Positions 28,477 through 52,640 are shown, counted from the stretch's first letter. The stretch is DNA of 64,000 bases from a bacterium (GCA_965213685.1 CBDBZY010000064.1:64001-128000); one strand, 5' to 3'. The notes: generated by a model from the letters alone, not told the origin. Numbers and translations: made by a program.

Positions 28477-29737
28477 TCAGAGAGTCGGTAGACTCTCTAT
28501 GTAGGGATGGCGCCGGTCCGCTCATAGTGTGCGTACATTGGAAAGCCGCCTTAACTCGCGAACTCTCGTGTTCTAAGCCTTTCTGGACACCTAGCTATCT
28601 TATTCCGACGTTTCTCTACCCAATGATACCCCCCAGATAGCTAAAAAGCATCCATAGACTTACTGCCAGGAAACGGGCGAAGTGGTGATTTCTTTTTCTT
28701 TCTGATTCTTCTTCTTCTTCTTCTTCTTCTTCTTCTTCTTCTTAAGAGATTTCTTTCAAACGACTTTTCTCGAAACTGGCAGAAGTAATCACCGTAGTTC
28801 TTTACAGATCAACTATAATCACTACCGCGTATGATCTGCCTTAACGGCATCTTAGCATCTTCTCAAATAAGCAGAAACTAGACGCACTGAACAACATGCC
28901 CATATTTGGAAGCCATTTTCTAATAGCTGTCATGTGACACAAATTGCAAGCACGTGAGGGCTGGCCTCGCGCGCCGCGTGCAATCACACGAAGCCACGCC
29001 CTAGTAAGCTACTCATGATAACGGCCGAGTGGCCTGTGTTTCAGCCGTATCTTATTTCACTGTTGTTTCAGAGTCGGTAAACTGTTCGTGTAGGAATGCC
29101 AATTGCGCGTGTACATACAAAAATGTTCTTTATAACTAGCGGACGCTCGTGTTAGGCTTTTCAAGCCCCTTTGAGCGCTAAGCGGCGTTATGCATCTCTC
29201 TACCAAACGATACGGCGCCCCCAAGAATCAAAGTTGCATCACTGAGCTTCATTTCCGAGTATGATCCCAAGAAACATACTTAGCCTCGCAAACCAGCCAT
29301 ATTTTTCCCGTGCGTGGAGGAAGCCGGGTGTTGGTGCTTAACTTAGAGAATTAAGGACAACCTCCTGTATGGTACTGTAGTACAGAAAAAAATGCATGCA
29401 AACAAGTATGAAAAACATTTTCCAAAAATGTAGAAGGATGTAGGAATGGCAGTGCCAAGAACCACACAAACTAGATATATGGATGGCAGTGTGCACAGGA
29501 CTACACAAGTAACCCCATCCCTACATCTTTTTTTTTGAATAGAACGTGTATCTAAACTTTGTTGTGAGATTACTGGAAAAATCTTTGTGCGGAAAACAAA
29601 GATGAAAAAAAAAGATGTAGGGATGGGGTTACTTGTGTAGTCCTCTGCACACTGCCATCCATATATCTAGTTTGTGTGGTTCTTGGCACTGCCATCCCTA
29701 CATCCTTCTACATTTTTGGAAAATGTTTTTCATACTT
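28477..29737 (+). mobile_element. Non-autonomous Helitron-like element, copy 1
   Basis: a^TCAGAGAGTCGGTAGACTCTCT 5' end; internal (CTT)n; terminal palindrome 29403-29737; last bases (ttg^t) probably displaced to 30726-30728 by a HINE insertion. Confidence 0.75.
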
Positions 29738-30725
29738 AACTAGTAGAATGCTGAGCATTGTGGGCGAGCGGGAGCGAGCCAGGTGCAATAAGCAGAAAAT
29801 TATCTTGAATGATAGTTTGACATGGTTTGGAGTGAACATCTTATGAATGTAGCAACATTTGCAAGAGCAGCCAAAGTACAATGTTGGATCACTAGCTGTG
29901 ATGTACAGCTCTTGTGATTGGCCTCAAAGTTAATGCCCAAGAAATTGCCTGCTAAGCTATCAAGTGGTGTGTGAACGCTCACAGCATGTATCCCAACATC
30001 CAAGTCATTTTCTCAGCCTGTTGAAGTGAAGTGGAATCATAGATGTAGTAAACAGCTTCCTATGTACTGTACACCAACTTCGTACTAGTCTACAAGCAAG
30101 TCGCAGTCCCTAGCGTCACACCACCAGTGAGCTAGTCCCTAGCGTGGGCCCTAAGCTACATGTAGCTAGCCCTTGCCGCGTGTAACCGGACGCAGCGAAC
30201 AGTAGCTGCCCTCCGAGCATTGACGAGGTAAGCGGCGACCGTGGGGTAGTCCGAATCGTGAGACGCAATACACTAGCCAAGGCGATACACTAGCCAAGGC
30301 TTGCTTATAACACGTAGCTTAGATATCCTAGCCCTAGCTCTGCCTCGTCACACGGCCAGTAAGCTAGTCCCTAGCGTGCCAGTGGGCCCCAAGCTACATG
30401 TAGCTTTTGCGCGTGTAACGACGCAGCCAACGGTAGTTGCCCTCTCAGCGTTGACGAGCTAAGGGATAGTCCGAATCGTGAGACGCAATACAGTAGCCAA
30501 GGCTTGCTTGTAACACGTAGCTTAGACATCTAAGCACGTAGCGAGGTTCAGCTCTTTCCCCGTCCAAGTAACCGGATGTGATCGAGCTGGCTATACGTTT
30601 GTCCGTAGCGCAGGGGCCCGCGGGGACCAAAAAAGCTTCATCGCCCGATGACATATATATATATATATATAGAAATCCGCTCCAGCAGAACGACTAGATG
30701 GGCTCGCTCCCGCTCGCCCAAATTA
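29738..30725 (-). mobile_element. HINE (Helentron-associated non-autonomous element)
   Basis: subTIR tgggcgagcgggagcgagcc at 29762 and inverted at ~30701-30720; 3' hairpin aatgctcagcatt plus ctagt; internal duplication ~30105-30345 / 30345-30530. Confidence 0.7.
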
Positions 30726-30877
30726 TTGTAATTCCTCTCTTTCTTATGCAGGTTGAAGAAACAAAACCTAACAACCATAATACCAATGATCAGGAAAGTG
30801 CACATGTTGGTACCTGCCTCTTGAGATGTTGATGATTATCACTGTCTTCCTGTACATTATAAAGCTATAGAATAGAA

Positions 30878-49300: not shown

Positions 49301-52300
49301 AGAGTCATGTTACGTCGCAATATTGACACCAAGGCTGGACTGGTGAATGGTGCCCTTGGCACTGTTTTGTCAATTACATTAACCAGTGTAACAGTTCAGT
49401 TTGATCACATACATCACCCTCATAACGTAGAAAGGGTGAAAAGCAGATTTATGGTAATGAAAAATTTTTACATCTACAGAAGACAGTTTCCACTAATCCT
49501 TGCTTATGCTATTACCATTCATAAATGCCAGGGTTTGTCACTAGACTGTGCCATAGTAGACCTGTCTGACCAGGTGTTTAGTCCTGGAATGGCCTATGTA
49601 GCACTGTCTAGAGTCCGATCTCTTTGTGGACTATACCTATCAGTATTTGATTCCAAATCAGTGATGGTTAGTCCAAAGTGTATAGGAGAAATTAACCGAC
49701 TAAGGAAAGCCTTTAGAAGTGATCTCCCACTGTATGCCATGCCCCTTGAACGCGCTAAAACTAAGCGTAAACTCACTGCTACTAGCCAGCATGATGAGCC
49801 TAAGCCAAAGAAATGCAAATATGAACCCCAGTCACTTTTGAGGCCACACAAAATTAAAAGGAAACGAGCATGTACAGGTGAAGATGAGGCCCCAGCTAAG
49901 AGAGTACATTGTGATCAGGACTGTGCATTTCTGCTGGAGGAACCATGTCCATATAAGTTCAACCCAGTTGGTGAGGTATGGCAGTGCAGTGTTAGTGCCA
50001 TGCTGGACCTTCAGTTTGTTAGGAAAACCAGAGTGAGGCCAGGGGGCCCAAATGTACCCCTGACACCTCCTGACATGCATACAGTGAAGCACATCACAGG
50101 AGATGGTAATTGTCTATTCCGCTCCTTTGCATACATAATGACTGGGTCTGAGGACCAACACATGGCTGTTCGCACTGCTATTCTACAACATATGATCAAT
50201 GTTGGTCATTTCATTCTTGGTCATCATGTGCTGAACTACTCCAGTATTCAAGATTACATTGCAGATACAAATATGGACAGAGAATCAGCCTGGGGTACTG
50301 ACATTGAAATGCTTACTCTAGCACACTTACTACAAACTCCTATTCTATCATATAGTGCACAGGATAGACGATGGAGCAAATATGCTGCTCATGATTTAGA
50401 CAGAACATTGAATCATGATGTGACACAAATGTCCATGTATCTGCTGTATAGATACAACCATTTTGAGGTTGTATGCTCAGTACGTAAATAAACAGTTTGT
50501 CACCATATTCAAAACAAGAAACATGCAACACATCCTTGCATAGGGTACTTTCTAGATCAAAAGTGTGAGGTGAAAAGTGCAACAATGATCACAGACATTG
50601 TGTGAGGGGGGGAAAGGGGAGGGAAATTACATATGGTTCCCCCATACTACAGAACAAATATGAAGCAATCAATGTGGCTTCATCAGTCATGTGTGTCCAT
50701 GTATGTGCTTTAATGAGTATTCGGTGCCTACCTGATGACACATTCATCTCCAATGTACATTTATATTTTACATATACATTGTTATCAGGATGCTCTGTGG
50801 CACTTACAGTGACCTCGGGCTCATGCAACCCTCACATACAGAATGCAGCTAAGTGACAAATGCCCAGCACTGCTGTCACCTAGTTCCACATCATAAGTCT
50901 GAGGTATGCCACCTCACAGATCTGCTTACACTTCAAAAATTCTGTCAAGACTGAGTACAGTCAGTTCACACCTTTTGGATGCTGCAGCTAGAGATTCAAT
51001 GTCACTGTACCTCATTTGGATGCTGCATTTCAGAGTGAACTCAGCTTGCACATCCTTCAAATGGATAGTGCAGCACAGCCACATTGCCCTTTAAATGTGA
51101 GGTACTCCCAATGGTGACTATATTTATCTAGTTTGCACATCCATAGGAGAGTGGTTCTGGCTTGTCTCAGCTCACACGTGTGTGGTGACTATACCACCAC
51201 ACTCCTAGAGCACCACAAGAGTGACCTTATACTCTGTGTGTGTGTACACCTGCCTGTGGGCCTGCCTGTCTAGATGAGCATGACATGGACACGTGCCTAG
51301 CACTGTCTCCCTAATGCTGCACTTCCAACTTGTGTACTTTGTCCTAGAGTCTGATGACTTGTGTGTACATGTCCAACTCCTCTTTCACTTCTCTTTCAGG
51401 TGTGCCCAAGGCTGTGTACAACTGGTTGAGGTCTTGGTCCCTATGTGTGCAGTGTCACCTTACACCGTAGCAGAAACTCCTCCCCTACCCTTTCCAGCAT
51501 CTGGCTTCTGGCATGTAGTTGCCAATTAAACTGCACTTGGGACTAGTCCAGGAGTCTGGGGGCTCTTGTGTGCCTATCTAACTCCTCCTTTTTCTCCTCT
51601 CTGTTAGGTGTCCCAAAGCCTGTGTGAGATCATGTCACTACCAAGTGGTTGAGATACTGTACCTAGTGTCAACTTACATGGGAGAGCATGAATTCCTCCC
51701 CCTACCCACTTCTAGCCTAGGGCTTCCTGCATGTGGTTACCATTAACACTGCACTTCCAACTGCTGAACCTAGTGACCCAGTCCTTGAGTCTGATGACTA
51801 TTGCCTCTTCCCCTCTCAGGATGTGGTGGAATGATGTCATCAGTCTGTGGCAAGCATCCTCCTGTGCAGTCATCACTGTTTCAAAGGTATATTTCAGGTG
51901 GGTACTACAGCTGCAATCTTCGGAGCACTTCCATCAATCAAGTACCTGTGACACATACAATATTTCCTCTACTTCTTCAGTCTTCCTTCACCCCTGTGTT
52001 TCACTGATGTTCTCCAGAGGTATATGTGCAATGAAGTCATCACCAGCAGGTAAGATAATCACTATAATTATACAATGTGAGCAGTGTCTAGTAGCTCACA
52101 TGGCTAATCATTGGTCTTTTATACTTCACAACCTCAGCCTGGCTGGATTTGGAGATCATTTCAAGAAGTTACAACTACAGGTATTTGTCATCACTCATGC
52201 AACTATTACCTTGTAATCCTTTCAGTATGTTCTATTTTCCTACCCTTGACACAGTCCTGTTGCCAAATATGCAAATACACCATAGAGCCCACTGTTCACT

Positions 52301-52640
52301 ACCAGATGCAATGAAGACAAAGATCACAATTTTCACAATTCAGACCTGACCATTTTTGTTAATCTTGGGAATGGCACATATTTCTGTTCCAAGTGTTTCT
52401 ATTTTTCTGTACACTTCCATCCCTACATCTTTTTTTTTTCAAGTGCAACCCTCTCATACCATAGCCTAGGTATACACAGTACTATCATGGAGAAAAAAGA
52501 TGTAGGGATGGGGTTACTTGTGTAGTCCTTGTATACCCTGTCTTGCCTGGACACTGCCACCACCATATCTAGTTTCTGTTGTTTTTGGCACTGCCATCCC
52601 TACATCCCTCAACATTTTTTGAAAATGTTTTTATTACTTG
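43334..52640 (+). mobile_element. Helitron-like element (5'-truncated, formerly autonomous)
   Basis: Contains the RepHel-OTU pseudogene; 43334-43395 resembles 28742-28805 and 52493-52640 matches the 3' terminus of the non-autonomous copies (..ttacttg^t). Confidence 0.8.
44236..50491 (+). pseudogene. Helitron RepHel transposase (DUF6570-like region, HUH Rep, PIF1 helicase, C-terminal OTU protease); frameshifted
   Basis: CCSCERL..CKYC zinc motif; CFPVLFPTG; PTLFLTFS; EYQARGAPHYH (~47018-47050); YVSGYVTK; GVGGTGK, IIDEVSMV, GDLLQLQPV, TIHKCQG, YVALSR; GDGNCLFRS..WG..NHF; about 6 frameshifts. Confidence 0.93.

Follow-up and report, generated by a model that had tools for sequence, protein, structure and literature searches.

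A decayed RepHel-OTU transposon of the Helitron2/Helentron lineage and its probable non-coding relatives in a 64,000-nucleotide window

We analysed a stretch of 64,000 nucleotides (GCA_965213685.1, CBDBZY010000064.1:64001-128000; hereafter the window), in which positions 28477 to 52640 hold a long transposon copy with a RepHel-OTU pseudogene, three short non-coding copies (c1, c2 and c3) and two fragments (fA and fB). Most probably all of these pieces belong to one rolling-circle transposon family of the HLE2 (Helitron2/Helentron) lineage, with the long copy dead and c1-c3 being derivatives of the HINE type. In the autonomous copy (about 43334-52640), which is of the DUF6570-Rep-PIF1 helicase-OTU type, there is no endonuclease and the 5' terminus is gone. 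Within the known Helitron2/Helentron group the family is nothing unusual, being old and dead at this locus, and only two of its features deserve attention: an A^T-type target (in one copy) and the co-evolving 3' palindrome of its short members. An earlier interpretation of the region (hereafter the original prediction), which saw a Helentron-type protein paired with canonical-style ends in a possibly undescribed structural variant, was half right. The pieces of the family and the repeat that interrupts it are the following.

28477-29738 (+): c1, a composite non-autonomous copy detected by repeat finding and local BLAST, in which the outer 5' terminus and a (TTC)n run are followed by another, diverged 5' terminus at ~29066, palindrome arms at 29402-29536 and 29605-29738, and the end CTTA
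30878-32058 (-): c2, a non-autonomous copy with the 5' hairpin deleted and the 3' hairpin degraded
36836-36925 (+): fA, a degraded fragment with ~55 nt of the 5' terminus and then a piece similar to the outer end of arm A
38683-39865 (-): c3, a non-autonomous copy matched end to end with c2 by local BLAST
39862-39845 (-): 5' hairpin of c3
39843-39831 (-): 5' inverted repeat of c3
39049-38895 (-): palindrome arm A of c3
38836-38683 (-): palindrome arm B of c3
38730-38718 (-): 3' inverted repeat of c3
38711-38695 (-): 3' hairpin of c3
38686-38683 (-): terminus CTTG of c3
42573-42627 (-): fB, a solitary 5' terminus with a perfect 8-bp hairpin, directed away from the RepHel gene
42944-43332 (no strand): a palindrome outside the family, resembling a miniature inverted-repeat transposable element (MITE), at which the 5' part of the long copy ends
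43334-43398 (+): 5' block of the long autonomous copy, 65 bp common to c1-c3
44232-50494 (+): RepHel-OTU pseudogene (DUF6570, Helitron_like_N, PIF1, OTU)
52414-52640 (+): 3' terminal region of the long copy, with an inner stem formed by 52416-52440 and 52494-52512
52593-52605 (+): 3' inverted repeat of the long copy
52611-52629 (+): 3' hairpin of the long copy
52637-52640 (+): terminus CTTG of the long copy

The short copies are tied to the RepHel-OTU gene by two matches that bracket it. The 5' block gave local scores of 63-71 with c1-c3 against a shuffle maximum of 38-39 (74-80% identity); it follows the microsatellite in the short copies, and a weak collinear similarity continues beyond it for ~180 bp, to about 43550. 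At the other side, 52417-52640 is 80-88% identical to the short copies (BLAST), with the last 60 nt 85-93% identical to c1-c3. Both matches and the open reading frames (ORFs) between them share one orientation. The original prediction of three ~1.2-kb non-coding copies sharing their 3' end and a near-5' block with the surroundings of this gene was thereby borne out by repeat finding, BLAST and shuffle scores, and so was the bracketing of the gene. What the short copies have in common with the gene copy is the 3' end and, on the 5' side, only the internal 65-bp block. No ORF of at least 130 aa lies wholly within c1, c2 or c3.

Plus-strand ORF pieces between the two matches gave Pfam E-values of 7e-11 for DUF6570 (PF20209; 43.1 bits against a cut-off of 24.3, in ORF 45518-46324), 1e-15 for Helitron_like_N, 5e-18 for PIF1 and 4.7e-10 for OTU. 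Across 44232-50488 they follow the order of residues 7-2157 in P0215, a relative of 2159 aa, with six frame changes (near 44630, 45162-45216, 45515, 46249, 46971 and 49301) and no internal stops. Introns were considered as the source of the frame changes and rejected: the homolog residues show no interruption from one piece to the next, and the DNA segments meet or overlap, so the changes are frameshifts; no long homopolymers were seen at the break points. The HUH motif (as HYH), the YxxxY motif, and the DGNC and C-terminal His motifs of the OTU domain are intact, and the Walker A motif reads GKP (Ser-to-Pro) where all 11 relatives examined have GKS. At its 5' side the long copy is cut off, the 5' block being abutted by the MITE-like palindrome and the sequence to the left of the palindrome not being contiguous with the element. 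The RepHel-OTU gene is dead, and the frame changes, the Walker A change and the missing 5' terminus together make the long copy a dead, 5'-truncated relative of the element that mobilised the short copies; with 80-88% identity at the 3' end and 74-80% in the 5' block, it is not their direct parent, as had been proposed.

The protein was placed by its relatives, its domains and its Rep motifs. Its closest named relatives are from the sponge Ephydatia muelleri (~60% identity). Most of the longer relatives (P0215-P0278) list DUF6570, Helitron_like_N, PIF1 and OTU, and none of the 64 lists PF03372 or PF14529; endonuclease families are listed only by P0307 and P0309-P0311 (25-26% identity). In the window, the Pfam-scanned ORFs of 43.5-52.4 kb contained no match to the apurinic/apyrimidinic (AP) endonuclease family Exo_endo_phos. 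DUF6570 is described as almost exclusive to HLE2 and has been proposed as its marker (PMC11417382). In a quick maximum-likelihood tree (850 columns, SH-aLRT support only) of 35 rows, hand-picked from 112 matches to cover the named groups and those labelled by domain, the window protein is placed among animal OTU/UCH RepHels in a starred clade of 15 rows, which adjoins the starred endonuclease-bearing RGSPH clade (support 81). Both clades lie within a 29-row, mostly DUF6570-bearing group that is bounded by a starred branch of length 2.04, and four plant RGLPH rows and P0325 (also RGLPH) are placed well outside it. According to PMC4067079, motif 2 of Helentrons has an aromatic-x-R before (V/I)ExQxRG and reads RGSPH, and that of Helitrons reads RGLPH. 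RGLPH was found in four of four plant rows, RGSPH in four of four endonuclease rows, and RGAPH in the window protein and its clade; the full motif in the window, FYWKEYQARGAPHYH, has a Helentron-like aromatic-W-(K/R) part. By its DUF6570, its place in the tree and its motif 2, the protein is one of the Helentron/HLE2 lineage without an endonuclease, which agrees with the protein type originally predicted. A search of the PDB with the window protein returned distant Helraiser and Pif1 matches only, and a search of the Atlas generic PIF1 clusters only.

The ends of the well-preserved copies have a constant order of elements. On the 5' side, TC is followed by an 8-4-8 hairpin, a 13-nt repeat that starts 22 nt from the end, ~200 nt and a (TTC)n run, which in the short copies sits after ~230 nt; on the 3' side, the body is followed by the inverted 13-nt repeat, 6 nt, a 7-3-7 hairpin and 12 nt to CTTG. 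The 3' inverted repeat thus lies 48 and the 3' hairpin 12 from the element end, and the 7-8-bp stems of this hairpin in c1, c3 and the long copy stand 6 nt past the repeat and 11-12 nt short of the end. The structures originally predicted here held for part of the copies: of the 5' hairpins, those of c1 and fB are perfect, that of c3 has 7 bp, that of fA is degraded, and c2 has lost its own by deletion; the 13-bp subterminal inverted repeat shows no mismatch in c1 or c3, and c2 has an exact 3' copy and one mismatch in the 5' copy (the 3' copy of the long copy is exact as well); the small 3' hairpin is kept in c1, c3 and the long copy and degraded in c2. The same applies to the proposed ends A^TC...CTTG^T. 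The base before TC is A at all five outer 5' ends (chance ~0.002, an estimate with A at ~0.29 of the bases), the 3' terminus is CTTG in c2, c3 and the long copy, and T follows three of the four 3' ends; c1 has CTTA followed by A. The flank of c1 may differ because c1 abuts the terminus of another repeat. The word TGTAGGGATGG, with up to one mismatch, has 23 matches in the window against 0.97 expected, all of them within family members and seven in each short copy.

The other repeat at the 3' end of c1 begins directly beside it (29739-29781 against 61514-61556, 95% over 43 bp), and further pieces of it were found at 30175-30632, matching 61218-61436.

For c3 the insertion site could be read from the host gene, which served as an empty-site control.

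41190-39866 and 38682-38274 (-): host ORF split by c3
39865-38683, 1183 nt: excision of TC...CTTG, giving 578 codons, as many as in the homolog P0123, with 0 stops; the junction reads N-I against N-T in P0123
1184 nt: excision of ATC...CTTG, giving 6 stops
1182 nt: excision of C...CTTG (T^T model), giving 6 stops

The homolog P0123 is intact (578 aa; 98.6% identity in the first 442 residues) and runs straight across the c3 site, as does P0124 (81%), and the 1184-nt and 1182-nt (T^T) excisions were rejected for their stops. In c3 the A before TC belongs to an Asn codon and hence to the host. A T^T insertion is excluded for c3, and the insertion of c3 at an A^T-type site without duplication is supported, for this one copy, by an empty site at the protein level, where one T can be assigned to either side (AA^TA or AAT^ATA). 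The original prediction of A^T insertion without a target-site duplication (TSD) was thus supported for c3, the 1183-nt excision restoring the ORF with a 1-nt ambiguity. Paralogous empty sites for c1, c2 or the long copy were not found within the window. The 578-aa product of the host ORF is Cys-rich at its N-terminus and contains numerous hydrophobic segments; 92 homologs were found, and it belongs to no Pfam family (weak DUF7630, E 0.006).

Among the short copies, c2 and c3 are collinear over their full length (88% in BLAST with gaps; substitution distance 5.5% over 1138 aligned columns, with 88 gap columns), and c1 has in common with them the first ~490 bp (80%) and the 3' palindrome only. 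Within the remainder of c1 lies another, diverged 5' terminus (~29066-29240; local score 69-79, with shuffles reaching at most 28), so that c1 is a composite carrying two left ends that point the same way; such an arrangement has been described for a Xenopus HLE2 family (PMC11417382).

In all three short copies the last ~150 bp are preceded by their own reverse complement, with a loop of 58-68 nt (Figures for the arm match are 131/135 positions in c1, 139/153 in c2 and 151/155 in c3). Folded as single-stranded DNA, the palindrome of c3 gave -185 kcal/mol (z = -36.8). The long copy has the inner ~19-25-bp stem only. The junction outside arm A is homologous in c1, c2 and c3, so the palindrome arose once; an independent formation in each lineage was considered and is ruled out by this junction. 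Between c1 and c3, 27 columns are changed in both arms in mirror image (a 17-nt deletion and 10 substitutions) and 5 columns in one arm, and between c2 and c3 one column is mirrored and 14 are changed in one arm. We read this pattern, from the alignments, as arms that would have been kept complementary while the lineages transposed and then decayed independently after insertion. This inverted duplication of the 3' end was absent from the original prediction, as were fA, fB and the MITE-like insertion at 42944-43332. The arms of the latter palindrome are 159 nt long and 96% complementary, and 60486-60706 holds part of a second copy; TTAA or TTTAA comes after each of the two, pointing to a family with TTAA targets.

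Compared with published systems, the family is close in layout to HLE2/Helitron2 (PMC3627910, PMC11417382), with which it shares a RepHel with DUF6570, an OTU domain (present within that group), the lack of a TSD, hairpins at both ends, and short (8-16 nt) asymmetric inverted repeats of which the 3' one lies just upstream of the 3' hairpin; for Helitron2, hairpins at both ends and asymmetric repeats of 8-15 bp are given in PMC3627910. Helentrons in the strict sense differ in an AP endonuclease fused C-terminal to the helicase, which was not found here. The short copies resemble the HINE/DINE-1-like elements (PMC4067079; Cg_HINE, PMC7492417) in being non-coding and in a 5' module of subterminal repeat, hairpin and microsatellite, and a 3' module of repeat and palindrome. 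HINEs are reported to have the 3' repeat 38-60 bp and the palindrome 8-35 bp from the end, with microsatellites common (PMC4067079; PMC7492417), and the distances of 48 and 12 in the window are within these ranges. Unlike the window family, they are described as having partners with an endonuclease, insertion in TT and T runs at their ends, and the descriptions, as far as available, do not mention a 150-bp inverted duplication of the 3' end.

The strongest competing explanation is a new hybrid structural class, i.e., an HLE2 protein that has gained canonical Helitron ends and target, as an animal counterpart of proto-Helentron; we regard it as rather unlikely. The TC start, the 3' hairpin 12 nt from the end and the A^T-type insertion of c3 without TSD would fit it, as would a 5' stem-loop upstream of the left repeat, a position shared with proto-Helentron and HLE2-reverse. 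Proto-Helentron-Pi of Phytophthora infestans (PMC4067079; PMC11417382) is also alike in its Helentron-lineage RepHel without an endonuclease, in its lack of a TSD and in the length of its left inverted repeat (~12 nt); it inserts between A and T (PMC4067079). It is unlike the window family in its ends (5' TT and 3' CTAG, here TC and CTTG), in its size (~14 kb) and other captured domains, and in being reported, in the accounts at hand, only from oomycetes; the window family additionally has a 3' stem-loop. According to the account in PMC11417382, proto-Helentron-like elements were not detected in the 404 genomes sampled there. However, the 3' end is CTTG or CTTA and not CTRR, and subterminal inverted repeats, a 3' stem-loop past the right repeat and a microsatellite are standard for HLE2 and HINE; 'canonical-style ends', as originally proposed, are therefore not justified.

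Moreover, FoHeli1 and FoHeli2 of Fusarium oxysporum, which are Helitron2 elements (PMC5148889), start with TCAG followed directly by a hairpin and have the target TNAT^A, which the TC/TTC ambiguity would turn into TNA^T (the c3 site is TAA^TA). They share with the window family the TCAG and terminal hairpin, an inverted repeat of 12-13 nt, and a 3' repeat and hairpin 38-51 bp from the 3' end. They differ in being fungal and in ending with ATTTT, and their published description, in the part available, has no OTU fusion; the one Fusarium protein in the 35-row tree is distant (end branch 2.29). Since an HLE2 protein with an A^T target had already been described as proto-Helentron, and FoHeli1/2 share the start, the 'undescribed structural variant' of the original prediction is not established; the sample for such a class amounts to one empty site and four 3' ends. 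A more specific form, a metazoan proto-Helentron counterpart with TC, a free-standing 5' hairpin, integration at A^T and, in the non-autonomous members, a 3' hairpin of ~150 bp under functional maintenance, for which the mirrored substitutions and the mirrored 17-nt deletion would speak, appears similarly doubtful to us. If it were true, the 3' hairpin might present a Rep-binding word seven times, or let the single-stranded intermediate prime its own second strand.

It is also possible, but unlikely, that the RepHel-OTU gene came from another Helitron that landed in or beside a short copy, so that the shared blocks belong to that copy and their position around the gene is a chance nesting. At least six pieces of the family occur within 25 kb, the long copy is without a 5' terminus, the shared sequence is limited to 65 bp on the 5' side (74-80%) and ~227 bp on the 3' side, and ~1.9 kb between the OTU stop codon and the 3' region have no assigned content, all of which would allow for such nesting. 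It is contradicted by the order and orientation of the two blocks, which are those of the gene, by the weak collinear similarity that goes on for ~180 bp beyond the 5' block, and by the mutual consistency of an HLE2-lineage protein with HLE2-type termini; furthermore, a second set of repeat motifs or termini was not seen in 43400-52400.

A canonical (HLE1) Helitron family is very improbable and already contradicted: the TC start, the A^T-type target and the hairpin 12 nt from the 3' end would suit it, but DUF6570 is present, the tree and motif 2 lead away from the RGLPH rows, the Rep domain is only a weak match to that of Helraiser (E 1.9e-4), and the 13-nt inverted repeats and the non-CTRR 3' end do not belong to such a family. 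Helraiser (PDB 7LCC), a canonical Helitron, has in common with the window family an HUH-Y2 Rep fused to a PIF1-like helicase, the 5' TC, an A^T target and a hairpin close to the 3' end. It differs in having RGLPH (RGAPH in the window) and no inverted repeats, DUF6570 or OTU; its match to the whole window protein (E 2.5e-17) lies mostly in the helicase. Foldback or MITE-type cut-and-paste elements of no rolling-circle relation, which the long palindromes and short inverted repeats might bring to mind, can be dismissed almost entirely in view of the asymmetric ends, the confinement of the palindrome to the 3' part of each copy, the exact excision of c3 with no TSD, and the 3' end common to the RepHel-bearing copy.

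The assignment to one family of the HLE2 lineage has several observations to contend with. The published HLE2 arrangement has the 5' repeat 0-4 nt from the end and within the hairpin, whereas here it starts 22 nt from TC, behind a separate hairpin. HLE2 insertion is said to be 'usually' or 'generally' between T and T (PMC11417382; T^T or TTTT^T in the published accounts), and the target of c3, the one copy with an empty site, differs from this. The flanks are not uniform, the internal (sixth) 5' end, that of c1, being preceded by T, and the 3' end of c1 departing from the others in its last base and its flank. In motif 2 the residue between G and P is A, neither S nor L, and the HLE1 and HLE2 labels in the tree follow domains and motif 2 instead of curated Repbase references. 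Both termini and the gene do not occur together in any copy of the window, so the link by trans-mobilisation rests on one truncated copy. Functional roles are conjectural as well: the 13-nt repeat word TGTAGGGATGG would be our guess for the likeliest, putative Rep-binding word, and the mirrored arm changes could be caused by selection or by repair within the hairpin.

Helitrons are described as having an HUH-Y2 Rep, a 5'-to-3' PIF1-like helicase and a single-stranded intermediate (PMC5148889). For the window family, an intact member would supply RepHel in trans and would nick at the 5' TC beside the 5' hairpin; RepHel would then unwind the strand from 5' to 3' and stop at a 3' signal consisting of the 13-nt repeat, the 7-bp hairpin and 12 nt ending in CTTG, and the single strand would be pasted into an A^T-type site (TNA^TA in c3) without target duplication. 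The ~150-bp 3' palindrome of the short copies had a single origin, and its complementarity was presumably kept during the activity of the lineages and lost by decay after insertion.

The host genome of the window is a eukaryotic one, rich in transposable elements, and probably that of an animal. GC content ranges over 0.37-0.51, and the Pfam scan found fragments of non-LTR (long terminal repeat) reverse transcriptases, a hAT dimerisation domain, a Tc1/mariner-type DDE_3 ORF and sulfatase exons. When bacterial and archaeal genome contigs were searched, a 21-nt word from the 3' end gave 0 matches, and relatives of the 805-aa ORF gave 0 confirmed loci. Non-LTR retrotransposon fragments (endonuclease, reverse transcriptase) and a Tc1/mariner-type transposase (helix-turn-helix and DDE_3) lie at 3524-5483, 16813-18328, 20662-22642 (-) and 58037-59037. 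The minus-strand sulfatase exons are duplicated (34808-35506 and 36410-36496 against 53126-54158; 82-83% identical, with one 87-bp piece at 97.7%), and the Helitron cluster is flanked on either side by these sulfatase paralogs. A 736-bp inverted repeat (9333-10068 against 12124-12859, 99.7% identity, arms ~2 kb apart) is found just upstream of the ORF with the hAT dimerisation domain (13093-13560). Between 24000 and 28000 the GC skew is strong (+0.31 to +0.45) and long minus-strand ORFs are without a Pfam match; internal repeats of ~340-410 bp occupy 25185-26294, with a related stretch at 62240-62749. Another repeat (19927-20103 against 34194-34365, 86% identical) holds 34-37 bp that resemble part of the palindrome arm (E ~1e-4 to 4e-5), a likeness that could be chance or an old fragment.

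For the annotation of the region, the outcome is mostly housekeeping: it is a decayed HLE2 family with HINE-type derivatives and not a new element class. For transposon biology it adds a clean empty-site case in which an animal HLE2-lineage element entered an A^T-type site and duplicated nothing. This favours the view that HLE2 elements are variable in their choice of target and in the sequence of their ends, and that 'T^T' is unsuited as a hard rule for boundary curation. The joint change of the two arms between lineages, together with their separate decay after insertion, is an indirect sign that the hairpin forms and matters during transposition.

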